Shown here: one piece after another, positions 4,677 to 62,959 of the stretch
Numbering within the stretch: position 1 is the first letter of the stretch
Layout of the letters: each line of letters starts with the position of its first letter
Source of the DNA: Dehalococcoidia bacterium
GTDB lineage: Bacteria; Chloroflexota; Dehalococcoidia; GIF9; AB-539-J10
Length of the DNA: 64,000 nucleotides
Direction: 5' to 3'
Assembly (NCBI GenBank): GCA_046538235.1
Contig: JBKHJG010000003.1
Coordinates: forward strand, 41,722-105,721
Translations under genes and position numbers: made by a program
The notes under the pieces: model-generated
Told to the model about the DNA's origin: nothing
What the model saw: only the letters and a program-made list of their open reading frames with translations
Database searches by the model: none

Positions 4677-7187
4677 CTACTGGTTCAGCTCCCAGGTCAT
4701 ATCGCTGGGCACCGGCGTGTAGGTGTACCCGAATATCACTCCTGTCCCGCTCATAGCCACCCAGTATGCCTCGCCAAGCTGCAGATCTGAAGTTGTAGCG
4801 CTGCTTGGCGGCACGCTCCAGGCCACGTCGTTGGGAGGCTTGGGACTCAGCACAACGCTATAGTCAACACCGGACAGTGCCGTGGCCACGCTCATCTTGC
4901 TCAGGCTGGATGTCCCGACAAGGTTCCAGCCAACCGCCAGGTCTCTCATGGGAGGCGCCGTTGTGCCGGTTGCGACCAGCACCGGCAAGCTGCCCTTGTC
5001 CCGGACCTGGATGAAGAACCCTTCGCCAGGGCCAATCTGGTAGTCAGTAATCAAGGTGTTGTTCAGTATTAGCGTTACCCATTGCTGGGTATCAGGATTG
5101 AAGCGCTGGGCCCTCAGAATGAACAGGTCGCTGGCCCCTGCCAGCGCCAGAAGCTCGCTCACCGAGTTGCCAGAGCTATCCAGTACTATGGGAGTTGAGA
5201 AGCTATTCCAGCCTCCCACGTAGCTGGTAACGCCACCAACAGTGACCGACGTCGCTTCATTGTCCAGCACCACCGAGCCCGCCAGGCAGGGAGCATCGGG
5301 CGCAAACTGCTCCTCAGGCTTGTACAGCCAGGGGCTGAAATCTGCGTTCCCGCTCACGGCGTTGATCTGGCCGCCGGGATTGCGGGTATCGTGGTGCGGC
5401 CCGATGGCATGCCCCCACCAGTTATACAGGGCATCCAGCTTGGCACTATCTGCGTTCTCCAGGCCCCAGTCGCTGTTGCCATCAATATTGTTATAGTTGA
5501 CCGTCACACCGCCTGCGGAGGAGGATACCAGGATGCCCGTGTCATTATCCTGCACTGTGTTTCGGCTGATGTTGATATTGGTTAAGGTCTGACCACCACC
5601 GCCTATGCGGATGCCATGGGCAAACCCCTTGCCCACCCCAGAACCTTTTACCGTGTTATCAACCAGCGTGACCGCATCCTGCGCCGCACCGGCATAGTCG
5701 CGCACCAGTATGCCCATGTAGCCGCCCGGGAGGCCCGGCGCGAGGTCGGTGATGATGCTGTTGCCACTGATATCTGTGTTGGAGCGCTCCGTCGTGATGG
5801 CACGAAGGACCTTGCCCGTGAACTCATTATCGGCTATGGTAACTGTACCTGTTCCTGTGTCACGATTGATGTATATCCCTTCGTAGCCTACGCTTCCCGC
5901 CCCCCGATGGGTGAAGCTATTATCATGTACGTTGAGACCGGAGACGTCAACGCCCGGCACAGCGTCTTTGTGATATGTCACAATTCCCTGCGATACATCA
6001 TCAAAAGCCACCGTGTCACCGGCATTGTTTACCTCAAAGGCATTATCGTAGATCTCGACATCCTGAGCACCGATGAGCATACCGGCGGCGAACAGGGTCC
6101 CCGATGGCTCGGGCCCCTGGATTGTGAACCCGTGGAGCTTGACGCCATCGGCCCGGACATCGATATTGGGATTGGTAGAAACCCCCCACTGACTCAAAGT
6201 CACACCTTTGATGGTGGTATCATCCTTGCCACTTATGGAAGTCAGGGTCAAACCCTGCTTATTGATCACCAGGTCCTCTTCATACAGGGCATCGTGGGCC
6301 AGCAGGGTGTAGTCTGTGCCGGCGCCACCGATGGCAGTCCCTATAGTACTGTACGTGGCTGTAAAGACGAGCGTGTCAACCGTGAATATAGTGTCCGAAG
6401 GAGTGTATTTCTGCCACACATCTACTTGCTTGGTGCCGGCAGCGTTGGCGGTAAAACTCCCGTTGGCAGTGCTATCGCCGGCCGGCGTCTGGGCCTTCAC
6501 CGAGAAGCTGCCCTCGTTCTTGACCTCTATCTTGACGTTAACCTCGCTGACCGAAATGAACCTGGTCTGCAGCACATCCGCCCCCGCCCCAAAATTGATG
6601 GTGGTCTCGGAGGCATTGGTATCGCTGTTACCCATGAAACTCGTACCCGCGATTACCACCCACATCGTGCCCCCAACGTTACCCTGGCCGGGGCTGACGC
6701 CGGTTATGGTGGGTAGCTCGCGTATGGCGTAGGCAGCAGAGTCCACAGGTGTGGTCTCCCTGCTGGTGTTGACCTTCAGCTTGTAGTCCCCCGTAGTTGT
6801 CGGATTCGTGATGTTGGCGCTGGGGATGAAGCCCACAGTTACCGTAGCTGGAGCTACAATCGTGACTGGCGTGATCAGGGTCACCGCCCTACCCGCAACC
6901 GAAACATCGCCGCTGGCAACGGCATTTCCGTTGACGGTTATATTGCCTGTGCCATAGGACGTGGGGACTCCCGTGTCGCTCGGGAAATCAATCGTGATGC
7001 TATGAGTCCCTGCCGTCAGGCTGGCAGTTACATCGAACACGACGGTATACTCGGCTACCGCACCGGCCAGCACCGGGTCAACCGTAACCTCGGCCTGGCC
7101 TACGGCTGCCTGTACCGGCGTGCCCGTTAGTAGCCCCATACTCAGCACGAGCGCCAGGGCAAGCAGAATACTGGTTATCTTGTTCAT
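4677..7187 (-). CDS. large secreted right-handed parallel beta-helix protein (NosD/pectate-lyase-like repeats)
   Basis: Start taken at MNKITS (ORF residue 24), preceded by AAGGAG, giving signal peptide LALALVLSMGLLTGTPVQA. It has multiple parallel beta-helix repeat motifs (DNEFTG, ISGNSI, NISRNTV, NYNNIDGNSDWGL) and an NWWG...GP...NPGG...SGNADFSPWL motif. Confidence 0.75.
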   Translation of the reverse strand: MNKITSILLALALVLSMGLLTGTPVQAAVGQAEVTVDPVLAGAVAEYTVVFDVTASLTAGTHSITIDFPSDTGVPTSYGTGNITVNGNAVASGDVSVAGRAVTLITPVTIVAPATVTVGFIPSANITNPTTTGDYKLKVNTSRETTPVDSAAYAIRELPTITGVSPGQGNVGGTMWVVIAGTSFMGNSDTNASETTINFGAGADVLQTRFISVSEVNVKIEVKNEGSFSVKAQTPAGDSTANGSFTANAAGTKQVDVWQKYTPSDTIFTVDTLVFTATYSTIGTAIGGAGTDYTLLAHDALYEEDLVINKQGLTLTSISGKDDTTIKGVTLSQWGVSTNPNIDVRADGVKLHGFTIQGPEPSGTLFAAGMLIGAQDVEIYDNAFEVNNAGDTVAFDDVSQGIVTYHKDAVPGVDVSGLNVHDNSFTHRGAGSVGYEGIYINRDTGTGTVTIADNEFTGKVLRAITTERSNTDISGNSIITDLAPGLPGGYMGILVRDYAGAAQDAVTLVDNTVKGSGVGKGFAHGIRIGGGGQTLTNINISRNTVQDNDTGILVSSSAGGVTVNYNNIDGNSDWGLENADSAKLDALYNWWGHAIGPHHDTRNPGGQINAVSGNADFSPWLYKPEEQFAPDAPCLAGSVVLDNEATSVTVGGVTSYVGGWNSFSTPIVLDSSGNSVSELLALAGASDLFILRAQRFNPDTQQWVTLILNNTLITDYQIGPGEGFFIQVRDKGSLPVLVATGTTAPPMRDLAVGWNLVGTSSLSKMSVATALSGVDYSVVLSPKPPNDVAWSVPPSSATTSDLQLGEAYWVAMSGTGVIFGYTYTPVPSDMTWELNQ

Positions 7188-7628
7188 CTTCTTCTCCTTT
7201 CGTCGGTTCCCGATCGGGTTATCGCCCCTCGACCAGGGGCATCCCGGCTTTTGCAAGGCGTGATTCTCCTCTCCATGTACTTCACCCCCTTAACCGTACC
7301 AAACTAAAGAAGCCATTCTTCACACGCCGCCGGCCGGGAGCCAAAACCCCAGGCGCAAAGCAGCTGGCGGCGCTTCGCACCTAGAACACAGTATAGCAGC
7401 GGAAATGGCGCTTGTCCAGCGTATCCTCACAGGTGGGGCTGTTTCGGCGGCAGTAGGTCGGTTCATTGGCTTAAGCCCTATAACTGTATAACGACGCTGC
7501 CTTCATTCTGTTACAGCCCCACTACTGCGACTGTGCCCAACAAGCCTGACAGGGGCCCGGTCAGGGGCGGCCTGGGAACCGCGGGCTTCCTCCGTTCGAC
7601 CTGACCCTTTCCCCGGTTCCTGAGTGCC

Positions 7629-44395: not shown

Positions 44396-44807
44396 GGGTG
44401 AGTAAACCGGGTGATCGCCCCGGCTCAGCGCAGCAGGGGAGGAAAGTCCGAGCTCCACCGAGCAGGGTGCTGGGTAACGCCCAGGAGGGGGGACCCTACG
44501 GAAAGTGCCACAGAAACACACCGCCAGCGGCCCCGATGTTGTCGGGGCGCGGGTAAGGTTGAAATGGTGAGGTAAGAGCCCACCAGCAGCCAGGAGACTG
44601 GCTGGCTAGGCAAACCCCACCCGGAGCAAGACCGAATAAGGGGGCTCGACTTGACCTGGAGCCTCAGGACTGCGAGTCAAGTCTAAGGTGCTCGGCCGAG
44701 GCCCTCGGGTTGGTCGCTTGACCCTGATGGCAACGTCAGGGCTAGATGGATGGTCACCACCCCGAATCGCTCGGGGTACAGAACTCGGCTTATAGGTTTA
44801 CTCACCC
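44396..44807 (+). ncRNA. rnpB: RNase P RNA, bacterial type A
   Basis: The 5' GGGTGAGTAAACC pairs with the 3' GGTTTACTCACCC (P1). Universal conserved blocks are present: GGAAAGTCCGAGCTCCAC, GGGTAACGCCCAGG, GAAAGTGCCACAGAAA, GGTAAGAGCCCACCAG, CCACCCGGAGCAAG and ACAGAACTCGGCTTATAGG. Confidence 0.9.
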
Positions 44808-44808
44808 G
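44782..44808 (+). repeat. attL-like 27-nt direct repeat (within rnpB 3' end)
   Basis: aactcggctta(t)aggtttactcacccg recurs at 62933-62959 with one mismatch (c). Confidence 0.7.
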
Positions 44809-44922
44809 TTGAGTTTGGGGGGATCCGCCGCCTGAGGGTTCTGTGCGGAAGGGGTGGGCCATGAAAAAAAGGGTACCATGGGGTGTTGTGGTTGTCAAGG
44901 GGGGCCGTGGTATAATGGTGGT

Positions 44923-45198
44923 ATGCTTCGCTTTATGATCTTCGCTTCGCTTGCCGCGCTGGCGTTGCTGAGTGGGACCGCCGGCGTGGTGGGGGTGACG
45001 CCTGGCGAGGACGGCGCCGGTGGGACGGAAACCGCCGAACCGGGCGGATCCGGTGGCCCGGAGGGGGCGGTGGAACCGCCGTCGGCGTCGGTGGGGATCG
45101 TCATCACCATGTTCGCCGAGGATGGGGACGGGGCGGAGGGTGCGCGGGCGAGTGTGACGCTGAGGGCGAGGACGGCGCCGGCGGATGAGGGGGGTTAG
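44923..45198 (+). CDS. small secreted Gly/Glu-rich protein (element-borne, only plus-strand gene; candidate moron)
   Basis: An internal ATG gives MLRFMIFASLAALALLSGTAG signal-like N-terminus. It lies just inside attL, downstream of rnpB, on the same strand. Confidence 0.4.
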   Translation: MLRFMIFASLAALALLSGTAGVVGVTPGEDGAGGTETAEPGGSGGPEGAVEPPSASVGIVITMFAEDGDGAEGARASVTLRARTAPADEGG

Positions 45199-45280
45199 GG
45201 GAAAGGAGCTCGAGGAAAACGGGCTCGGGGTTGTCCTCGAAAAAAAGGGCGGAGCCCTTTCGGGCCCCGCCCCAGGGTGG

Positions 45281-47415: not shown

Positions 47416-47601
47416 TCAGGCCAGGTCTAGCTTGTGAACGAGGTATCCGTAGGCGATGCCCTTGAGGTAGAAAGTGAGTTCGATCTCGCCGGGCTTGAAC
47501 GCAGCGGGGTAGGTCCGGCCGTTGACGGTGAAGGGGCGGCAGAGTCGGCGGGTGGTCCGGACCAGGAGCCAGAATAGACGGTCCTCGATGCTTGGGAACA
47601 C
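47416..47601 (-). CDS. phage small protein
   Basis: AAGGAGGTGAAC-ATG. 61 aa. Confidence 0.45.
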   Translation of the reverse strand: MFPSIEDRLFWLLVRTTRRLCRPFTVNGRTYPAAFKPGEIELTFYLKGIAYGYLVHKLDLA

Positions 47602-47604
47602 GGT

Positions 47605-47706
47605 TCACCTCCTTTTTGTTTTGTTTGCGATGCGGTCGCAGATTATGAGGGCGATCAGGACGATCCAGGTGACGCAGATCATCTGGAGGGCTTGGGGGGT
47701 TGGCAT
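47605..47706 (-). CDS. 33-aa single-TM micro-protein (below ORF-track cutoff)
   Basis: MPTPQALQMICVTWIVLIALIICDRIANKTKRR is the C-terminal tail of spurious ORF 47605..48618. A GTG/ATG follows an AAGGAGGTG. Confidence 0.4.
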   Translation of the reverse strand: MPTPQALQMICVTWIVLIALIICDRIANKTKRR

Positions 47707-47711
47707 TTCGG

Positions 47712-47891
47712 TCACGGCTGCACCTCCTTTGCGACGGGCATTTGCGGGGCTATGGTGGTCTCCTGGATGATGCCGGTCCAGCCGCACCATTCGAGGTTGC
47801 AGGCGACGACGGTGGCGCGGTATTCGCTGGGGAAGAGGCCGATGAACACGAACCTCTTCCCCCTGCGCATGATGAGGCAGAACACGGTCAT
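47712..47891 (-). CDS. 59-aa Cys-rich micro-protein (below ORF-track cutoff)
   Basis: Hand translation gives MTVFCLIMRRGKRFVFIGLFPSEYRATVVACNLEWCGWTGIIQETTIAPQMPVAKEVQP, starting after CCAGGAGGTGCAGCC-ATG. The ATGA overlaps the stop of 47888..48244. Confidence 0.4.
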   Translation of the reverse strand: MTVFCLIMRRGKRFVFIGLFPSEYRATVVACNLEWCGWTGIIQETTIAPQMPVAKEVQP

Positions 47892-48244
47892 GGCTGCACC
47901 TCCTGGGCGTGGCGGGCGCGGACCAGGGCATCCATGGCGCGCTGGGCCCTGAAAACCTTGCGCTTGGCTTCTGACGGGTGGTCACCGACCTGGGGGAGGA
48001 AGCATCCCCCGACCTGCCGACAGAGGCTGGGGCAGTGCCCTGCGGCGTGGATCCGCTCACAGATTTCGCCGCGCCGGCGGTCCAGGCGGACACTGAACCG
48101 GCGACGCGCCCTTTCGGCGAGCTGGCGCCTGGACCGCCGCAGACCTGCCTCGCAATGATTGACGCGGCTGCAGATGCGCGGGCACTCAAGAGCGCCGCAG
48201 AGGCCAGGGGCGAGATGTGGGTAATGAAGCAATACCTGGGACAT
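47888..48244 (-). CDS. phage Arg/Cys-rich protein
   Basis: AAGGAGGTG-N5-ATG. 118 aa with 8 Cys. Confidence 0.5.
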   Translation of the reverse strand: MSQVLLHYPHLAPGLCGALECPRICSRVNHCEAGLRRSRRQLAERARRRFSVRLDRRRGEICERIHAAGHCPSLCRQVGGCFLPQVGDHPSEAKRKVFRAQRAMDALVRARHAQEVQP

Positions 48245-49227
48245 GGAGCACCTCCTTGCGCAGGCACGCCGGGGCGGCCGACATGCCTGCTGTTTCTTTC
48301 TCCCAGGTTGCTATACCCGGCCCGAAGGGCGAAAAGCCCGGGAAGAGGGTAAAGCAAGGGCGGAGCCGACAGGCGACGGGAGGGTTGCGCGCATCGAGGG
48401 ACGGCGGTTTCTTGCCCCTCTCTCCTACAAAAAACCGACGGAACTTGAGCCGCAACTCGCGCCGGCCAAGGGATGGGCCCCTGGCCAAGCGACCCGCAGG
48501 GCCGACGAACCCTTGCTCCGTGGGAGATCGACGGCCGAGCGCTCGCGAGCGGTGACGGACCGGCGACAAGCCGGGGACCAGGGCTAAGCAAGCACCGAGA
48601 CGAAGCGAGCGCGGGCATGAAACAATAGGGAAAGCAGCAGGCATAAACAGGGGCTGGCCCGCGAAGCCGCGAGGCCTATCTGCGCCTGCGGCGCTTCGGC
48701 GCAGTCCAGCGTGGCGCCGTCTCCGGCCGGAACGGCCCTGCCGCAGCCGGCCCTTTCGGCGCCGGCAAGGCCCGGAGCGAACCGCCCTGCGCCGAACTCT
48801 GCCTCACCCTTTCGGCGCTGCGGTGAGCGACCTCGCCGACCCGGCTGGCCGGGTCCACGGAGGCTGAAAAGGGGCAAGAGTAGAACGCGGCGAAAGCGGA
48901 CGTCTCCTTGCCCTGGCGCCTTTCGCCGGCGGGCCCTCAAGGCATAGGCCGTGAACCCGGGAACGAGCTATGCCTCCCTTCGCAGCAGGCGGCCTTCTGG
49001 CCTGGTGCGACCGCCGGCGCCCTCCGCAAAGGTGAAGGAGCGGACGCCGCCGCCCACCCTGTGCGCCCCTTTTGAGCTGTAGCGGTACGGGTACCTGTAC
49101 GCGAAGCGAGCACTGGCCGGCGTAACGGATTTTCTTCCTTATTGCTCCCCGACGGCCGGGCGAGCTGAGCTGCGCGTGTGCGGGCGGAGGGGGGTGGTGC
49201 GTGGGGAAAAAAGAGAGGGCCGACGGA

Positions 49228-49521
49228 TCAACCGCTGGCCTCGTTTACGATGCGCACATGGTACAGCCATGAGCGCCGGCCGCGCACAAAGCCCTGCAGC
49301 ACGCGCCACCACTGCTCGGCCGAGCCGAACCCGCTGTACCGCACGAATGGCCGCAGGTCATCGACGGACCGGACCTCGCCGAGCTTGCGCCTGTAGCACC
49401 GACCGACGCCATCGACCCATACGTGAGCACACGACATGTCATAGCCGCGCGCCGTGTAAACCTGGCCGTGCCGCAGCAAGCACTCACGCACGCACCGAAC
49501 CGAAAACTGTATTTTCTTCAT
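49228..49521 (-). CDS. phage small protein
   Basis: AAGGAGGTG-N6-ATG at MKKIQFS, an internal start of the track ORF. 97 aa. Confidence 0.5.
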   Translation of the reverse strand: MKKIQFSVRCVRECLLRHGQVYTARGYDMSCAHVWVDGVGRCYRRKLGEVRSVDDLRPFVRYSGFGSAEQWWRVLQGFVRGRRSWLYHVRIVNEASG

Positions 49522-49711
49522 GACTGCACCTCCTTTTCGCCCCTGGGTAGCAGCCGCCCTTGTTGTCAAGGCGTTTACAGCGCCCTTCGGTCCCTCCGCG
49601 TGCCTTGACAACCTCCTGGCTGCTATAACCCTTAGAAGGAGGTGCAGCATAGAAAATGCTCGGGTGCGTGCGCTTGCGGCGGCACGGCGGTGGGGCGCGG
49701 GTGGGTCCCTC

Positions 49712-49902
49712 CGGGTGGGCACCTGACAGGCCTGAAGCACGCCTGGCTTCTATGGAGCTGGGGTGGTGCGGTGAGGGGTGGGGCGACTGATCCGGGCCAG
49801 GCGATGCCGGGAGGGCCTGTCTTTGGTGCAGGCGGTGAGGGGTTGACGTCGGGTGGGCACCGGAGAAGCGCGAAGCTGGCTTCTCTTTGGTGCAGGTGGT
49901 GG
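49712..49902. repeat. two roughly 130-bp imperfect direct repeat units (GGGTGGGCACC...CTGGCTTCT...CTTTGGTGCAGGYGGTG)
   Basis: GGGTGGGCACC occurs at about 49713 and 49841. CTGGCTTCT occurs at about 49743 and 49876. CTTTGGTGCAGG(C/T)GGTG occurs at about 49820 and 49885. The region is non-coding. Confidence 0.6.
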
Positions 49903-50400
49903 CCGGCCGCGGCCCGGCGGGCTGACTTCAGCGCCGTTGCGGTGCGACGGGACGGGAAGAACGACGGGCGAACATGCCGGGCGCGATCATGACGGCGGCG
50001 TGGCTGGAAGGCCGACGGGGCGCGGGCCGGCGCGGCGACGCACGGTAGCGGTGACGATGACGATCGGTGACGGTGGCGGTAACGGTAGCGCTGACGGAAC
50101 GAGTGTGGTGGTGGTGTGGTGGTGGTGGTGTGGTACGGAGGCGGTGGCAAGATAACAAACCGACGAGGGCGGGCGCCCCTGCCTCGAGGCGGCGGGCGTG
50201 ACGAGCGGAGCCGTCGGGCCGAACCCAGCGATGAGTAGCGAGCCGGCCGCCGCCGTCGCCCGCCCGAAGCCTGCGGCGGCGTAGCCGACGCCCTGGATGA
50301 CCCGATTGACCCAGGTGACTGCGGGCTGACACGAAGATGACCCTTCGGAAGATGACCGTTGGGAAGAGGTGTGGTGTGGGGGCCCGGGAGACCTTCCCGA

Positions 50401-50709
50401 TTAGGCCGGGTGACTGGGTTGGCTTGGTGAGTGCCCTTGCTGAGTGGGTGTGGTTGGTGTGGTGTGTGGATGGTGCTGGGGAAGGGGTAGCTGAGCGCCG
50501 TGCTTCTTGGCCTCATGGACCATGCGGCGTGTCCAGGGTGATTGCCTTGCGAGGTGTTGTGCTTCGGCGAGGGTGTAGGTGATGGCTTGGCTTGGTGTGT
50601 CGGCCAGGTAGGAGTCGTCGAGGACGAACCAGACCTCGTCGTCGAAGTAGGTGGCTTTGAAGCAGTTAGGGTTTGCGGGCGTTGCGGTGTTCAAGTTGAT
50701 CGAGTTCAT
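50401..50709 (-). CDS. phage hypothetical protein
   Basis: The N-terminal 70 aa are protein-like. The C-terminus runs into low-complexity sequence, so the exact end is doubtful. Confidence 0.35.
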   Translation of the reverse strand: MNSINLNTATPANPNCFKATYFDDEVWFVLDDSYLADTPSQAITYTLAEAQHLARQSPWTRRMVHEAKKHGAQLPLPQHHPHTTPTTPTQQGHSPSQPSHPA

Positions 50710-50911
50710 GGATGAGCGCTTTGAGTTTCGCCGGGATCCTTTTGGTTGGCGCTGCGTAGGTTGATGACTTCTGTTTGAAGTAGCGGCTTTGTGTGACGCT
50801 CTTGGCGATCCGCATCTTTAGGTCGTTGATGCGTGTTTGGATTTGGGGGTTTGTCTGAGCGTTGTGTTTGTTTGACTCCCCCTGTTTGTGTTTGGGTCCT
50901 CTTGTTGTCAA
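50666..50911 (-). CDS. phage basic hypothetical protein
   Basis: 81 aa, Lys/Arg-rich. Confidence 0.35.
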   Translation of the reverse strand: MTTRGPKHKQGESNKHNAQTNPQIQTRINDLKMRIAKSVTQSRYFKQKSSTYAAPTKRIPAKLKALIHELDQLEHRNARKP

Positions 50912-51164
50912 GGCGGTTGTATTCTCCAGGGGGGTGTCAGAGTTCGGGCGCGAATTGGAGGCAGTGGAGGCAGATGGTGCCGACGCGGCGCCAGCGGCGG
51001 TTGATGCGGACGTAGCAGGCCTTGACGTCGCCCTTCCGGATCCGGGGGTTGGTCCTGGAACGGGGCGCCCTGGGGCAGAGGTAGTGAGGCTGGAGCTTCA
51101 TAAGTTGAAGGTATACCATAAGGGCGCTGGTTGGCAAACGCCGGCGTTTTTTTCGGAAAACGAG

Positions 51165-53219
51165 TCATCGGGCCCCCAGGGTGAGGGTGTGCTGGTAGCG
51201 TGGCCGGCGCCGGTCCAGGGCGATCCGATCGCCGAGGACGCGAAACTTGCGGGCTGATATGCCGCAGCGAGGGTCCGTGACGTCGATGACGTCGTAGGGT
51301 TCCAGGCCGACGTTGGCAGGGGTGGTGATGGCGGCGGGGGTGGCCTGGAGCTCGGCCAGCCGGAGGATGGCCAGGGCCCTCTCCTCCAGGCGGGCGATGA
51401 CGTCCAGGTTGGGGTCGTAGGCCTGCTCGAGGATATCGATGCCGTCGTGCAGTAGATCCCAGTCGAACTCGTCGTGGACCAGCCGGTCGGCGGAGGCGTC
51501 CCTGCCCAGGGCCCGGGCGCGGGACAGGGTGACAGCATGGCGGTAGCTGCCCTGGAAGATGCGGTGGGCGTCGGGGCCGTAGCTGTAGGCGGAGGCCTCG
51601 GTGGGGCGGGGGTCCTTGGTCTGCGCCAGGCCTCCGGGCAGAAACATGAGTCGGTCGGGGACCAGGGCCAGGAGGCGCCTGAGGACCGTATCGCCGGCCG
51701 TGCCCGGGGTTATGGTAAAGTCGGGGTAGAAGTTATCGATGGCCGAGGAGCGGGGCTGCGGGGGGTCGGTGGTGAGACGGAGTCCTACCCGCGCCAGGAC
51801 GCGGTACATGATCTGCCAGACGCTGCGGGGGGAGCTGGCGTCCTTATTCCAGCGGAGCTGATGCCTGGGGGTCCAGGACCGGAGCAGGCCCCAGCCGTCG
51901 GTGGCGGTGATGATAAACAGGGACCGCCCGGGGCCGTGGGTGTACTCCCAGGACTCGATCCACAGGGTGGCGAAGTCGAGGGTCTCGTCTCCGGCACTGG
52001 TCCGGTAGCCGAGCTCGAGATCGAGCCGGGCGCGAAAGCGAAGCGAAGCCAGGGCGCCGGCGCCGGGGGTCGAATACTGGCCTTTGGAGTTGTTGAGCTC
52101 CAGGCCGAGGGTGCCCGGGCGGTTTACTGTCAATGAGGTTATATCCGGGCTGAGGTCGATGGCGGCCATGGGCGCCCTGGCGGCCCTCCACACTCCGGAG
52201 GGCATCTCCATCCACCAATAGGCGGACGTGGTTGCGAGCCTGAGGCCGTAGTCGGGGGCGATATCCAGGAGCGGCGCCGGCTCGGTGAAGGTGGTGTCGG
52301 TCCAGTCCGTCCCCGGGACCACGTGGCAGGCCAGGGGACGGGTGTAGGCGGTTGTGCCGGCGAACTTCTCGGTCAGGGTGACGCGAGACGTCTCGTAGGA
52401 CTGGGCGGAGGCCGGCAGGTGCACGTCGGGGTAGTGGAAGGTGAGGTCCTCTCCGTCGGGGGCCATGAGGAAGCTCTCCAGGGCTCCGAAGGACCAGAGG
52501 TCGCTAAACCAGGTGCGGAACAGGTTGTGGTGGTTGTAGGGGCTGGCCGACTGCTTGCCGGCGAACACGATGTTGCAGCGGGGCCCGGAGGAATCGTAGG
52601 TGGCTCCGATGCCGTAGGTGTTGGTGATGACGATGGGCTCGGGAGGCGTGTAGGACTTGACCTTCTGGCTGGTGACCTGGGTGTCGGTATCGAGGCGGAT
52701 GCCGTTGATCTCGTCGGCCTTGAGGGCGAAGCAGATGACCGTGCTGGACGTGCCCCACCAGCAGGCGGCCAGGGAGAGCACGTCGGCATAGTCGACCAGG
52801 AGCTCGTCGTCCCAGTTGCTGCCGTAGTCGTGGGTGTAGATCTTGATGATGGCGTTGGGGTAGGGGATATAGCTGGAGGTGGTGCGGCAGAAGATGTAGA
52901 CCCGGGACCCGGAGGCTGTGATGGCGCAGGGGCCCTCGCACTCGGTGAGGACCAGCTCCCAGGTTGAGTAGTTGGACGTCGGGCCGGGGTTGGTGATCCT
53001 CTGGCGGTAGAGGTTGGTGCCGTCCACGCGGAGCCGCCACATGGCGCCCTGGTCATCGAAGGCGATATCGTGCTGGCCCTGGGCCTCGGTACCGGAGTAA
53101 AGCCTCTCCCAGGACAGCCTCTTGACGCCCTGGTACAGGTCCGAGACGGTGGCCTTGACGCAGGGCAGCCGGTGCGGGCTTTTCTGGGCTGCCTCGAGGG
53201 TGGGGGTGAGCGTTTTCAT
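51165..53219 (-). CDS. large virion-associated protein (candidate tail/host-recognition or other structural protein)
   Basis: 684 aa. It is the last large gene of the morphogenesis operon. No Walker motifs. Beta-rich. Confidence 0.5.
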   Translation of the reverse strand: MKTLTPTLEAAQKSPHRLPCVKATVSDLYQGVKRLSWERLYSGTEAQGQHDIAFDDQGAMWRLRVDGTNLYRQRITNPGPTSNYSTWELVLTECEGPCAITASGSRVYIFCRTTSSYIPYPNAIIKIYTHDYGSNWDDELLVDYADVLSLAACWWGTSSTVICFALKADEINGIRLDTDTQVTSQKVKSYTPPEPIVITNTYGIGATYDSSGPRCNIVFAGKQSASPYNHHNLFRTWFSDLWSFGALESFLMAPDGEDLTFHYPDVHLPASAQSYETSRVTLTEKFAGTTAYTRPLACHVVPGTDWTDTTFTEPAPLLDIAPDYGLRLATTSAYWWMEMPSGVWRAARAPMAAIDLSPDITSLTVNRPGTLGLELNNSKGQYSTPGAGALASLRFRARLDLELGYRTSAGDETLDFATLWIESWEYTHGPGRSLFIITATDGWGLLRSWTPRHQLRWNKDASSPRSVWQIMYRVLARVGLRLTTDPPQPRSSAIDNFYPDFTITPGTAGDTVLRRLLALVPDRLMFLPGGLAQTKDPRPTEASAYSYGPDAHRIFQGSYRHAVTLSRARALGRDASADRLVHDEFDWDLLHDGIDILEQAYDPNLDVIARLEERALAILRLAELQATPAAITTPANVGLEPYDVIDVTDPRCGISARKFRVLGDRIALDRRRPRYQHTLTLGAR

Positions 53220-53511: not shown

Positions 53512-53700
53512 CTATTCCGTGGGCTCCCCCGGCAGGATGGGGAGCGGGCGGTCGTAGCCGAGGTCGCGGAGGGCCTGCAGGTGTACCAGGGCTTCGATGG
53601 CCAGCTTGACGGCTTCTCTCCTGTCGTCGGGGTCATACTGCGGTCCTCCGCATAGCAGGTCTGTGAGGATTTCGATTGCTTTATCTAGTCTCATATTCAC
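53512..53700 (-). CDS. phage small protein
   Basis: 62 aa. It overlaps the upstream gene. Confidence 0.4.
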   Translation of the reverse strand: MNMRLDKAIEILTDLLCGGPQYDPDDRREAVKLAIEALVHLQALRDLGYDRPLPILPGEPTE

Positions 53701-54565
53701 CTTCCTTGCCTCCCTTCGGCATCTCCTGCCTCAAATGGTGTAGCGGGAATCCAGTAGCATCGCAATAGAACGGATAATAGCCAGCGATGTCTGGACTTTC
53801 CCCGAGATTATCCTTCAGGAACACCGGGACGCTCGCCTGGTCCGCGGCCTCGACGATCTCGGTGATCCACTCGACCTTCGGCGTGGTGGCCTTCCGTACT
53901 GGGGTCTGCTGGCCTATGATGATCCAGTCCACGGGTCTATCTGAGATCGAATACTCGATTGCCCGGAAGACCTCACCATCCCAATCCAGAAGAGGCTCTA
54001 CCGATATGAACTTCACCTTTGCATCGACCTCATGCAGCCAGTTATGTGCGTCGATGAAATGCAGCGTATCAGTCGCCGTCACCCCGACCCAGCAGTTCTC
54101 AGGAAAGCTCCACGTGATAAGGTTCTGCGGCTGCTTCGTCAAGAGATAGAAGCGGTCCATCGGATCACTCGTGATATAGTCAAAAATCTCCTGCTGCCAC
54201 TCTTCGGGCACCCAATCACCAAAGAGCTCACCCATGTCGCAAACAAAAATCCCCTTTGGCTTTCTACCGCTCAGACTGTCCCACCAAGCACCAGAAGGCT
54301 TGATATCCTCCAACCTCTCTTCCCAGAACCGAGGATAGAAGGGGTCAGTAACGGCTGCGTTCCAGACATCACTACTCGGAGCGAGGACGCCGCCCAATGT
54401 GTACCTCGTCCTCAGCCGTCCATGCGCCAGCCTATGAGCATAGCACGGGAAGCCCCCACCTTTACAAAGGCCGTTGACATGGTTCAGGCAGCCGGTGATA
54501 GGATTCCAAGTGTAGCCCTGGCTGCCATCAGGGTTCTTTACCCACTCGATTAATGTTTTGTTCAC
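53681..54565 (-). CDS. phage Gp37/Gp68-family protein (DUF5131)
   Basis: IEWVKNPDGSQGYTWNPITGCLNHVNGLCKGGGFPCYAHRLA matches the Gp37/Gp68 N-terminal Cys cluster. Confidence 0.65.
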   Translation of the reverse strand: MNKTLIEWVKNPDGSQGYTWNPITGCLNHVNGLCKGGGFPCYAHRLAHGRLRTRYTLGGVLAPSSDVWNAAVTDPFYPRFWEERLEDIKPSGAWWDSLSGRKPKGIFVCDMGELFGDWVPEEWQQEIFDYITSDPMDRFYLLTKQPQNLITWSFPENCWVGVTATDTLHFIDAHNWLHEVDAKVKFISVEPLLDWDGEVFRAIEYSISDRPVDWIIIGQQTPVRKATTPKVEWITEIVEAADQASVPVFLKDNLGESPDIAGYYPFYCDATGFPLHHLRQEMPKGGKEGEYETR

Positions 54566-54753
54566 TTCTCCTGCTCGGTCTCGCCTGGGAGTGGATCTGA
54601 GGTAGTAAGGGGATAGGGCAAAGTTCGGTCAGCATTGACTCGCTTCAGCGCCTCAATGCCCAGCAACATCGCCTTAGCGTATTTGTGGTAAAACCCTTGT
54701 GCAACTATTGCCTGGTGTAGTTTTAACTCCTTAATGGCTTCTTCTAGTGTCAT
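54562..54753 (-). CDS. phage small protein
   Basis: An internal ATG (MTLEEAIKELK) follows GGAAGGAGAA. The ATGA overlaps the stop of the upstream gene. Confidence 0.45.
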   Translation of the reverse strand: MTLEEAIKELKLHQAIVAQGFYHKYAKAMLLGIEALKRVNADRTLPYPLTTSDPLPGETEQEK

Positions 54754-55007
54754 TGCTGTTTGTTCTCCTTCCTGTGCATGTATGTACGCTCGCCGAAGTA
54801 CCACAATATACAGGGGATGGCCAGGCTGATGAACCAGGGCGGGGGCTCGATCTCCGCCAGGACGGCGCCGGCGATGGTGCCGGCGAATATGACGGTGACG
54901 ATGGGCCGGGTGGCTGCCCTGGCCGTCTCGGCGACTGCGTTTTGCCGCGCCAGAGGGCACTGAGAGGCCGAGGGCGGCCCCTGTTTTGCCTGGGCCGTGT
55001 CTTTCAT
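54750..55007 (-). CDS. phage small membrane protein (2 TM; holin-like topology)
   Basis: 85 aa with two hydrophobic helices. ATGA coupling occurs at both ends. Confidence 0.45.
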   Translation of the reverse strand: MKDTAQAKQGPPSASQCPLARQNAVAETARAATRPIVTVIFAGTIAGAVLAEIEPPPWFISLAIPCILWYFGERTYMHRKENKQQ

Positions 55008-61790: not shown

Positions 61791-62956
61791 TGCCTCTCCT
61801 CCTGTCGGCCGTATTCGGGCGGGGGCGGGGGGAAGGCACACTCACTGCTGTGCACTCTAACCTTCGATGTCTCCCCCGGCGTTCCCCCATGTCGTTCATT
61901 GCTTAAGCTTAAGCTTAAGCGCTTAGACTTACACTTCTTACTATCAGGTATTGAGCTTACGCTTCCGCTTTCGTCAAGCAGGGCGATCGCAGACTGAAGG
62001 TGCGAGGGTAGCAGGTCCAGGTAGACGGCGGTGGTGGATATGTCGGCGTGGCCGAGAAGGGCCTGGACTGCGGTGATGGGGGCTCCCTGCTCGAGAAGGC
62101 GGGTGGCGAACTGGTGGCGGAGGCTGTGCGGTGTGAGGTCGGTGATGCCGGCGGCCACGGCGTATTGCTTGACTATGGTATAGAGGCGCTTCCGCTGGAA
62201 AGGAAAGAGGCTGTCGGTGGGCTTGATGCGGTTGGACGCGATGTGCTCGGCCAGGGGTTGCCGGAGGACCTGGCTGAGGGGGATGGCGCGGTCCTTGCCT
62301 CCCTTGCCCCTGCGGACCAGGATGAAGTCGGGCGTGATGTCGCAGGGGCGGAGGTTAAGCAGCTCGGATGCGCGCAGGCCGGTGAAGGCCAGCATAAGGA
62401 GTATGAGCCTGTCCCGCGCCTTGTTCCTGGACCAGCTGTCGGTGCGGGCGTCGATGGCCTGGAGCATTGACTCGAGGTCCTGTCGGGAGTGGTACTGGGG
62501 GAGCTGACGGGGCCTCTTGAACTTGAGCTTGAAGGGTATGCCCTGGTACTCAAGGAAGGGTTTGATGGCGTGGTAGTATAGCTGTATGCTGCGGGGGCTG
62601 TAGGCGTGGGTCCTGAGGTCGGCGAGGAAGGCCCGGGCAGCCTGGGGCGAGATGGGCCGGCGGTCCAGCCAGGTGGCGAAGGTGGTGAGGCACTGCCTGT
62701 ATTTGGCGATGGTGGTGGGTGATAGGTCCGGGTTAAGTTCGACCTCGCTGAGGTAATCGTGTAGCAGGGCGACGCTGTAGCCTGGCGGCTCTGCTGGCAC
62801 CGGTAGTACCCCCCAACCCGTCCCGTGATCGCTAGTCAGATGGGAGCTGCTAGTGGGGTGTGTATGGTAGCGGTTGGGGTTGGGTGGTGTCAAGGGGTGG
62901 GCCCGGGGCCGGCCTGAGGTGAGGGGACACATAACTCGGCTTACAGGTTTACTCAC
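61568..62956 (-). CDS. tyrosine recombinase / phage integrase (XerC/D-like)
   Basis: Catalytic-domain motifs: RDRLILLMLAFTGLRASELLNLR (Arg box I), HSLRHQFATRLL (His-x-x-Arg box II) and LLGHADISTTAVYLDL (catalytic Tyr). The GTG at 62956 lies inside attR, so the true start is probably downstream. The C-terminal roughly 130 aa of the ORF is low-complexity read-through, probably not part of the protein. Confidence 0.8.
   Translation of the reverse strand: MSKPVSRVMCPLTSGRPRAHPLTPPNPNRYHTHPTSSSHLTSDHGTGWGVLPVPAEPPGYSVALLHDYLSEVELNPDLSPTTIAKYRQCLTTFATWLDRRPISPQAARAFLADLRTHAYSPRSIQLYYHAIKPFLEYQGIPFKLKFKRPRQLPQYHSRQDLESMLQAIDARTDSWSRNKARDRLILLMLAFTGLRASELLNLRPCDITPDFILVRRGKGGKDRAIPLSQVLRQPLAEHIASNRIKPTDSLFPFQRKRLYTIVKQYAVAAGITDLTPHSLRHQFATRLLEQGAPITAVQALLGHADISTTAVYLDLLPSHLQSAIALLDESGSVSSIPDSKKCKSKRLSLSLSNERHGGTPGETSKVRVHSSECAFPPPPPEYGRQEERQCSGSGSKRERASMPASTSHPSRASPNTGPGRGASSASARDAPTASQASPHDGVTRPASSLTTSRRPGNSETKS
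61901..61920. repeat. perfect 20-nt palindrome GCTTAAGCTTAAGCTTAAGC
   Basis: Self-complementary (AAGCTT)x3 core, immediately after the conserved integrase catalytic-Tyr region. Confidence 0.8.
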
Positions 62957-62959
62957 CCG
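62933..62959 (+). repeat. attR-like 27-nt direct repeat (displaced copy of rnpB 3' end)
   Basis: aactcggctta(c)aggtttactcacccg lies immediately upstream of the integrase gene. Confidence 0.7.

Follow-up and report, generated by a model that had tools for sequence, protein, structure and literature searches.

Background

What fills the roughly 2 kb of DNA, apparently free of genes, in the middle of this prophage? The prophage lies in a 64,000-nucleotide (nt) stretch of a Dehalococcoidia (Chloroflexota) genome, and we call that whole stretch the window. The segment in question, 48245-50400, sits mid-prophage, with the late genes on one side and the early genes on the other. The initial annotation described it as about 2 kb of extremely GC-rich, non-coding DNA holding two direct repeats and a GT microsatellite. 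It offered a replication origin, iterons, a pac or regulatory region, or a structured RNA as explanations. We will argue that these 2 kb consist of two gene-free stretches, of 983 and about 880 nt, with a real gene (p97) between them, and that each of the three parts has its own explanation. Taking the segment as a whole, we favor on balance, without pressing it far, the explanation that p97 is an accessory gene, that the left-hand stretch encodes a new family of RNA of about 950 nt which acts in cis as the leader of the early operon, and that the right-hand stretch (region II) is a spacer. The parts and their neighbors are as follows.

47888-48244, minus strand: p118, a conserved early gene with third-position substitutions, encoding a Cys- and Arg-rich protein of 118 amino acids (aa)
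48245-49190, minus strand: region I, a large conserved structured RNA of about 950 nt, from after the p97 terminator to the p118 ribosome-binding site
49228-49521, minus strand: p97, a gene for 97 aa with a strong Shine-Dalgarno site (AAGGAGGTG), a signal in GC at third codon positions (GC3), third-position substitutions and homologs
49640-50400: region II, a gene-free, lineage-specific spacer whose sense (minus) strand is 44% C and 26% G
50401-50709, minus strand: p102, a small gene with a coding signal, the right boundary of the region

Related phage contigs carry labels such as L002, which we use only where they must be told apart.

Two gene-free stretches and a gene

The segment is as GC-rich as had been claimed, with a GC of 0.67-0.69 at 48-50 kb against about 0.58 in host DNA. 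The claim that it is non-coding holds for 48245-49200 and 49530-50460 and fails for p97. GC by codon position points strongly to coding on the left and right of the segment and again within it at 49200-49400, and it is flat at 48245-49200 and 49530-50460. The substitutions that separate the window from 12 related loci were mapped onto window coordinates and examined for 3-periodicity. They fall at third positions in p97 and p118 and are aperiodic throughout 48245-49227 and to the right of 49522. Six-frame tblastn with both gene-free stretches returned weak hits only, scattered over all frames and both strands. The relatives' equivalents of the right-hand stretch also show aperiodic substitutions, and their gaps are mostly of 1-2 nt. 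Third-position substitutions, a GC3 signal and one preferred frame are all missing from 48245-49227 and 49522-50400. A conserved coding frame was found for the 294 nt of p97 only, and for neither of the stretches that flank it.

Long Arg/Pro-rich open reading frames (ORFs) can be drawn across this DNA, for example one of 294 aa at 49632-50516. We rejected them because they show no periodicity, have gaps that break the frame, and give hits in six frames. The ORFs that a gene caller places in L003, L004 and L171 were rejected on the same grounds.

A large structured RNA is conserved ahead of p118

Region I is kept in about 20 related phage contigs. Every relative that covers it has conserved blocks at 70-96% identity by blastn, no lower than the coding DNA to either side. 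The gap between the homologs of p97 and p118 is always 725-980 nt and is longer only where a YAcAr gene has been inserted. On other contigs the p118 homologs are preceded by 1.2-2.0 kb without a credible gene.

The evidence for structure comes from an alignment of 14 sequences (alignment A4), on which RNAalifold predicts 137 pairs in 25 helices. Standard pairs occupy 92.8% of the cells of these pairs, compared with 40-46% in slid controls, in which the 3' partners are shifted by 1-3 columns. Changes on both sides of a pair are found in 42 pairs, compared with 11-18 in the same controls. The margin is large and can be seen helix by helix. The covariation score is 0.175 against 0.085 +/- 0.005 for shuffled alignments, and none of 500 shuffles reaches the observed value, although the relatedness of the sequences, and their use in deriving the structure, mean that this count is not a probability. 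Because G.U cells outnumber A.C cells (157 to 33), the strand that pairs must be the minus strand of the window, which is the gene strand. The balance of C and G in region I (0.35 and 0.34), unlike that of its neighbors, is consistent with pairing on this strand. Comparison of related loci thus shows that a structure is conserved, on which strand it forms, that it always stands ahead of the early operon, and that the stretch does not code.

This bears directly on one of the alternatives, that the segment works at the DNA level (as an iteron origin, a pac or cos site, a recombination site) or is coding sequence that has decayed, and has no function as RNA. Neither a site in double-stranded DNA nor a pseudogene is expected to gather compensatory changes or to have G.U far in excess of A.C, as 48245-49190 does. 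The observations that speak for this alternative are confined to region II and are weighed there.

The RNA consists, as far as the alignments allow it to be read, of several independently closed domains and ends in a hairpin that abuts the p118 ribosome-binding site. Its features are listed from 5' to 3', all on the minus strand.

49233-49207: terminator-like hairpin and T-run after p97; relatives have a clear GC stem and T6 (GAGTCGGCGAGTAACCGCCGACTC TTTTTT)
49170-49101: block A, an extended hairpin with a conserved apical AAGGAAGAAAAUCC; its helices 2-4 show compensatory changes
49077-48863: domain A2, 215 nt, with a variable interior that contains a GAAA-loop hairpin; present in 7 loci
48842-48735: domain B, a three-way junction with two GAAA-loop hairpins and a nearly invariant core, CGGCGCCGAAAGGGC
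48658-48611: block C, the most widely conserved sequence, pyrimidine-rich (GCCAGCCCC..UAUGCCUGCUGCUUUCCCUAUUGU), nearly invariant in alignments A4 and A6
48612-48539: hairpin domain
48518-48510 with 48360-48352: long-range 9-bp helix, GAGCAAGGG / CCCUUGCUU, enclosing small hairpins and the U-run
48434-48429: conserved U-run inside the long-range helix
48290-48260: pre-Shine-Dalgarno hairpin, GCAGGCAUG..../....CGUGCCUGC, ending 2 nt before the Shine-Dalgarno site
48257-48249: p118 Shine-Dalgarno site, AAGGAGGUG
48244: p118 start codon

Block A is found in relatives by nhmmer with E values of 1e-21 to 1e-26, and examples of its compensatory pairs are one with CG in six sequences and AU in five, and one with AU in six and CG in six. 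Domain A2 is closed by a 13-bp helix of GCUCAAAAGGGGCG (49077-49064) with UGCCCCUUUUCAGC (48876-48863), which has compensatory changes in 7 of its 13 pairs and 94.5% of its cells paired. In domain B, GCGCCGAAAGGG occurs twice on the minus strand (48751-48762 and 48807-48818). A covariance model of this domain (R1) was built from 12 relatives with the window left out. It matches 48842-48735 on the minus strand over its full length with 63.2 bits (E 3.5e-12), and this is its sole convincing match in the 64 kb. R1 detects 18 loci. Across these, compensatory changes occur at 19 of the 26 pairs, and pairing holds in 95.9% of cells compared with 39-49% in slid controls; the 18-locus alignment was fitted to R1 and so leans toward the model. 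Initially reported as hairpins with CCTTTCGGCGC-like loops at 48700-48920, the GAAA-loop hairpins of domain B are real features of the transcribed strand.

The 3' half of the RNA, from block C to the Shine-Dalgarno site, is its most widely conserved part. It can be recognized in phages whose p118 is only 53-57% identical and which lack p97, block A and block B, and block C itself is recognizable in the distant loci L159 and L160. The long-range helix is paired in 100% of cells in 10 sequences, with a change from GC to AU at one pair in one sequence and a further apparent U-A swap in L165, seen by eye in the alignment. The pre-Shine-Dalgarno hairpin (helix 25) has 12 pairs, of which 4 are compensatory, and 94.9% of its cells are paired. 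The YAcAr gene of L002 likewise has a hairpin before it, with these same invariant arms, AGCAG/CUGCU. Most of the relatives that align at the U-run have one of 5-8, which lies 180-330 nt 5' of p118; L010 has none. Domains come and go among lineages, as seen for A2 and for an insert of about 150-200 nt after the U-run. A pseudoknot between the block A loop (AAGAAAA) and block C (UUUCUU) was considered and rejected, since the loop changes (to AAGCAUA), and block C changes in L170, with no matching change on the other side.

The structured RNA offered by the initial annotation is therefore strongly supported for 48245-49190 on the minus strand, and not for the part with the repeats and the GT tract. 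The support rests on the hairpins, which had been treated as minor, rather than on those more conspicuous features.

A search against known families gave nothing. The check proposed at the outset, with Infernal and Rfam, matched no family in the segment or in six relatives, and the families covered include GOLLD, ROOL, OLE, HEARO, the group I and II introns, tmRNA, 6S and the riboswitches. At gathering thresholds Rfam 15 finds only RNase P RNA (44399-44808) and a tRNA-Ser in the whole window, and at E <= 10 it finds in 47500-51200 only a chance match to the HIV Rev response element (11 bits against a gathering threshold of 104). The six related loci give no match at E <= 1. Two pattern scans of viral contigs turned up one new locus, the 18.5-kb relative L019, and otherwise chance hits or contigs already known, and a pattern scan of genome contigs gave chance hits of which none passed an nhmmer check. 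The RNA has been found only in a small group of phages of about 18 kb.

The RNA as a proposed leader of the early operon

The gene behind the RNA is p118. Its family counts at least 54 proteins, and every member seen in this analysis comes from a metagenomic or phage contig. The protein has many Arg residues and eight invariant Cys residues, with two similar C-x3-C-x5-C groups. Its AlphaFold 2 (AF2) model is all-helical with a predicted local distance difference test score (pLDDT) of 80, and sequence and fold searches found no match in Pfam, PHROG, PDB or BFVD. In all homologs the RNA is on the strand of the gene and contiguous with it, abutting the Shine-Dalgarno site either of p118 or of a YAcAr gene that stands just before p118.

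Several relatives also carry an operator-like palindrome, CTTTCTTTG(N)AAAGAAAG, with CAAAGAAAC behind it as a third half-site. An example is at about 10295-10345 of L012, and others are in L016, L009, L014, L006, L002 and L007. It lies before the RNA in some relatives and directly before p118 in L002 and L007, and it is absent from the window.

We propose that the RNA is the 5' leader of the early operon. In favor are its constant placement, the terminator behind p97, the U-run that most relatives keep, the compensatory changes in the pre-Shine-Dalgarno hairpin, and the fact that conservation reaches furthest in the 3' half, beside p118. RNA polymerase starting from an early promoter would have to cross the p97 terminator and then the internal hairpin and U-run. 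The folded leader would then set how much transcription, and after it translation, reaches p118 and the genes behind it. Control might come from competing pairings of the invariant CCUGCU and AGCAGG segments, or from the binding of a phage or host factor. The CCUGCU of block C is complementary both to GGCAGG in domain B (48742-48735) and to AGCAGGCA (48291-48284), which is otherwise part of the hairpin adjoining the Shine-Dalgarno site. That one segment can pair with either favors a leader acting in cis. The candidate alternative partners (GGCAGG, UGCCUGCU, AGCAGGCA and UGCCUGC) are all invariant.

Structured 5' leaders that govern read-through are familiar from the put RNA of HK022, from attenuators and from the expression platforms of riboswitches. 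The RNA is like these in having an early promoter before it and early genes of its own strand behind it, in the terminator-like site, in the hairpin beside the Shine-Dalgarno site, and in invariant segments with more than one possible partner, although the mutually exclusive helices are putative here. Put RNAs and typical attenuators differ from this RNA, which is modular and about ten times their size.

Several points weigh against a leader, and we do not wish to understate them. To our knowledge no leader or attenuator approaches 950 nt, the known ones being about a tenth of that. The partners of CCUGCU never vary, so covariation cannot test that pairing, and neither of its alternative pairings would occlude the Shine-Dalgarno site. 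The stems at the U-run are only 4-6 bp, and it goes uncalled in the consensus terminator scan. No promoter can be recognized in the window from the p97 terminator to block A. In L002 and L007 the position of the palindrome just 5' of p118 suggests that p118 has its own promoter there, and in these phages the RNA would be the leader of the YAcAr gene instead. The folding energy of region I is no better than that of shuffled sequence (z = -0.9 and -1.5), although such z-scores are uninformative on both strands at this GC content. Finally, transcription, the start and end points of the RNA and its regulatory role are what we infer.

If the RNA is not a leader, it could be a stand-alone product that acts in trans, in the manner of the large ornate RNAs GOLLD and ROOL, either alone or as a ribonucleoprotein (RNP) with p118 or p97. 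It might be made in infection or in lysogeny and serve, for example, against host defense or in the assembly of particles. We think this rather unlikely, roles included. ROOL RNAs are about 580 nt long. The RNA of region I is phage-encoded, has many domains with covariation over more than 500 nt, carries GNRA-type GAAA tetraloops in conserved hairpins, and is constantly linked to the Arg-rich p118, itself without a fold match. The conserved U-run could be its 3' end. GOLLD members are often longer than 800 nt, and their 3' part is the more widely conserved, as is the 3' half here (PMC12286853). Like GOLLD and ROOL (PMC12286853, PMC5737381), this RNA is encoded by a phage or prophage, has no known function and has many helices supported by covariation. 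But there is no match to GOLLD, ROOL, OLE or any other Rfam family, for GOLLD and ROOL not even at E <= 10. Those two are often beside tRNA islands, while a tRNA/tmRNA scan found no tRNA genes inside this prophage and neither tRNA nor tmRNA in the segment. They differ as well in that here the structure runs into the ribosome-binding site of a protein gene and the host belongs to the Chloroflexota (Dehalococcoidia). The conserved long-range helix also spans the U-run and structure continues to the Shine-Dalgarno site, which argues for one continuous transcript with the mRNA.

p97, its putative promoters and the question of an origin

The gene p97 interrupts the segment, and we treat it as an accessory. 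Its homologs (P0002-P0006 among them) are 53-73% identical and occur in about 20 metagenomic contigs, and it has no family match. The AF2 model has a pLDDT of 85. The best PDB match by Foldseek is a chain of Escherichia coli YqfB, and it is weak (template modeling score 0.51, E 0.38). YqfB, an N4-acetylcytidine (ac4C) amidohydrolase, is an ASCH-domain protein, and from the model we tentatively call the p97 fold PUA/ASCH-like. Several relatives (L156, L170, L171 and L172) lack p97 and keep the RNA, and in these the gene-free stretches are contiguous. The patchy presence of p97, together with a G/C skew opposite to that of its neighbors, suggests an inserted accessory gene.

A 29-nt box, CGCAAAGGAGGTGCAGCC(G/A)TGAC, is common to the starts of three minus-strand reading frames, 47605-47717, 47712-47891 and p97 itself (49228-49521). 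It is a common Shine-Dalgarno and start-codon cassette. The box also exposes a membrane-like ORF of 36 aa, VTEMPTPQALQMICVTWIVLIALIICDRIANKTKRR, which ORF lists cut at >=60 aa miss.

Two further features lie upstream of p97.

49559-49630, both strands: a divergent TTGACA-N13-15-TAnnnn pair, conserved in 12 of 12 relatives aligned
49636-49658, plus strand: a conserved Shine-Dalgarno site (AAGGAGGTG) and ATG after the plus-strand box, read from the alignment

The minus-strand TTGACA is at 49569-49564. The plus-strand TTGACA is at 49605-49610, with TATAAC at 49624-49629, and a third copy of the left box is at 50901-50918. The spacing of only 13-15 nt means that a sigma-70 scan does not call these boxes. 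We infer that they are promoters, and the one on the minus strand would drive p97. The ATG on the plus strand opens an ORF of 3-6 codons in some relatives (MPDR, MPIR or MIR, then a stop) and a non-conserved ORF in others.

These divergent boxes matter to another explanation, an RNA-primed origin of replication. On this view a structured pre-primer would be made from region I, possibly together with region II. It would stay hybridized to the DNA and be elongated by a polymerase of the host, in the manner of RNA II of ColE1, and an antisense regulator could come from the divergent promoter on the other strand. We consider this unlikely. The ORFs of the element scanned with Pfam and PHROGs gave no domain of a replication initiator, primase, helicase or polymerase. 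An RNA-primed mechanism has been proposed for the non-coding origins, of about 600 bp, of mycobacteriophages without RepA, which lie downstream of the virion structural genes (PMC7157519). Region I resembles them in being downstream of the tail-like gene in mid-genome, in being conserved and gene-free with no conserved ORF, in having the size (0.6-1 kb), and in belonging to a GC-rich genome with no recognizable initiator. Against this, most of the early proteins are orphans, so an unrecognized initiator may be among them. The mycobacteriophage cases are extrachromosomal prophages with parABS that replicate as plasmids, whereas the phage here has an integrase and is integrated, and there is no detectable sequence similarity between them. 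The RNA of those origins is read in reverse to the adjacent parA (PMC7157519), whereas the RNA here is co-directional with its neighbors. Nor would an origin be expected to meet the following gene's Shine-Dalgarno site at so tight and conserved a junction. A blastn search in distant mode found no similar record in a phage genome collection.

A fast-evolving spacer

Region II is a different matter from region I. Neither strand folds with a better energy than shuffled sequence (z = -0.04 and +1.2). The alignable part is limited to a short contig, L006, which matches up to 49875, and to matches of 33 nt in L010 (49751-49782) and 82 nt in L012. Beyond these, blastn shows no homology to relatives, and nhmmer finds none to the equivalents of eight of them. 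A phage whose p102 is 76% identical carries unrelated sequence in its place. The repeats and the GT tract that drew the attention of the initial annotation lie here.

49712-49837 (126 nt) and 49850-49901 (52 nt), plus strand: repeat units, about 70% identical where alignable, with only their ends shared
50103-50134, plus strand: (GTG/GGT)n tract, (ACC/CAC)n on the sense strand, period 3, 10.7 copies, 86% matches (Tandem Repeats Finder)

The two direct repeats exist, but they are not both of about 130 bp as had been described: one has 126 nt and the other is shortened to 52 nt. The exact 12-mer CGGGTGGGCACC occurs twice, at 49712 and 49850, and so does the exact 17-mer CTTTGGTGCAGGYGGTG, at 49821 and 49885, where 0.02 would be expected by chance; both pairs fall within 190 nt. 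On the minus strand, by direct reading of the sequence, the unit consists of CACCNCCUGCACCAAAG, a stem-loop and GGUGCCCACCCG, with the hairpin closed by GCACC/GGUGC. The GT-type tract was correctly seen and is best written (GTG)n. Conservation of the repeat units in homologous elements, which had been suggested as a check, is not found, since repeats and tract alike sit in the part that related phages do not conserve; the units have only a GUGCCCMCMCC motif in common with them. There is no evidence of selected structure in the repeats and GT tract of region II.

The relatives have their own versions of this region in a common style, with C/A-rich tracts between GC hairpins, although the C/A tracts of L170 are not homologous. 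Accessory genes at this site in relatives match Pfam Peptidase_M50B (weakly), HNH_3 (weakly) and DUF3800. In L016 an ORF of 890 aa (4938-7610, minus strand) occupies the spacer between the tail-like gene and p97, and to judge by its sequence it looks like an ATPase, possibly of a defense or anti-defense kind. Three relatives have a conserved module of about 130 nt closed by GGGAGCUUUUGCC/GGGCAAAAGCUCC (L170 3730-3895, L172 4380-4517 and L005 381-507). The closure makes it probably another structured RNA domain, and the GGGAGCUUUUGCC...GGGCAAAAGCUCC module is absent from the window.

At the right boundary the C-terminal residues of p102, about 30 of them, are of low complexity (..PLPQHHPHTTPTTPTQQGHSPSQPSHPA), and its homologs, of 68-82 aa, have no such tail. 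The tail looks like a read-on into region II that is specific to the window, where the original stop was lost.

It is here that a DNA-level element or decayed coding sequence finds its support, and for 49640-50400 only. This part is unconserved, p102 reads on into it, and it holds two-copy repeats and a microsatellite. The C excess of its sense strand (+0.26, compared with +0.21 in the tail-like gene) is equal to that of neighboring genes and would fit neutral or decayed sequence. Iterons, which the initial annotation had proposed, are hard to maintain. They would call for at least three regularly spaced repeats of about 17-22 bp beside a rep gene, and here the repeat families have two or three copies, with no regularly spaced array and no adjacent rep gene. 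The families with three copies are Shine-Dalgarno/start-codon boxes or low-complexity tracts. The attachment sites of the prophage, attL and attR, are elsewhere (44782-44808 and 62933-62959), and the small-terminase gene, the usual location of pac, is 10 kb away. As an account of the segment we find the DNA-level alternative improbable. A diversity-generating retroelement was also considered and rejected: the ORFs scanned have no reverse-transcriptase domain, and the repeat units are hairpin modules of unequal length. We regard region II, on its alignments, as a fast-evolving, lineage-specific spacer, a zone of plasticity between the late and early operons that may be transcribed from both sides.

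The prophage and its integration site

The element that carries all of this is a prophage, spanning about 44.8-63 kb with a GC of 0.63-0.69 against about 0.58 in host DNA. The minus strand carries every convincing prophage gene except one small plus-strand ORF at the left end. The prophage genes include matches to the small and large terminase, the portal and the major head protein, as well as a row of small early genes that mostly have no family match. Two genes serve as landmarks.

51165-53219: prophage gene for a tail-like protein of 684 aa
61568-62956: prophage gene for the integrase

The ends are given by a 27-nt direct repeat, AACTCGGCTTAYAGGTTTACTCACCCG, with 26 of 27 bases identical between attL (44782-44808) and attR (62933-62959). 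The repeats flank the element and so define a prophage of 18.15 kb, similar in size to the related phage contigs of 18.5-18.9 kb. Rfam places the RNase P RNA gene (rnpB) at 44399-44808, and the left copy of the repeat is its last 27 nt. Because the left repeat is the 3' end of rnpB, the phage must have integrated into that gene, whose 3' end was rebuilt. The RNA genes that usually serve as integration targets are those for tRNA and tmRNA, and rnpB is an unusual one.

Two further observations concern the prophage at large. At its left end a plus-strand unit at about 44893-45270, read from the sequence, has a TTGTCA-17-TATAAT promoter, then an ORF of about 90 aa and then a terminator. The ORF starts like a signal peptide, MLRFMIFASLAALALLSG..., and the strong terminator AAAAAAAGGGCGGAGCCCTTTCGGGCCCCGCCC follows it. 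By these features the unit looks like a gene expressed from the prophage. A DUF5131 gene of the phage Gp37Gp68 type (53681-54565, minus strand) adjoins a dip in GC to 0.557 at about 54000-55000. Such a dip within a prophage of 0.63-0.69 suggests a separately acquired insert.

Conclusions

Large structured RNAs are a known kind in phages, and this RNA is one of that kind. What sets it apart from the known members is its fusion to the 5' end of an operon, its modularity and the group of its host. We call the family new because it is absent from Rfam 15 and we found no description of it in the literature. It is the same kind of object as the candidates of a screen of viral contigs, conserved intergenic motifs with covariation in phage contigs of IMG/VR, and it may be present without a name among the more than 10,000 candidate motifs of that work (PMC10690425).

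A bolder reading deserves mention, and we give it a small but real chance. The RNA could represent a class of modular RNAs of about 1 kb that in small temperate phages of the Chloroflexota do the job of a protein, either as an RNA-primed origin or as the core of an RNP with p118, with region II and the divergent promoter supplying antisense or immunity control. The RNA's genetic partner, p118, and its position leading the early operon are both fixed, so it is directly testable.

The phages that infect Dehalococcoidia are almost unstudied as a group. Only a handful of RNAs longer than 500 nt are known from bacteria and their phages, and each has been a source of new structural biology. Should the RNA prove to be an origin or the RNA of an RNP, those mechanisms would gain a new phylum. 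As no more than a leader, it would be an unusually large and modular one.

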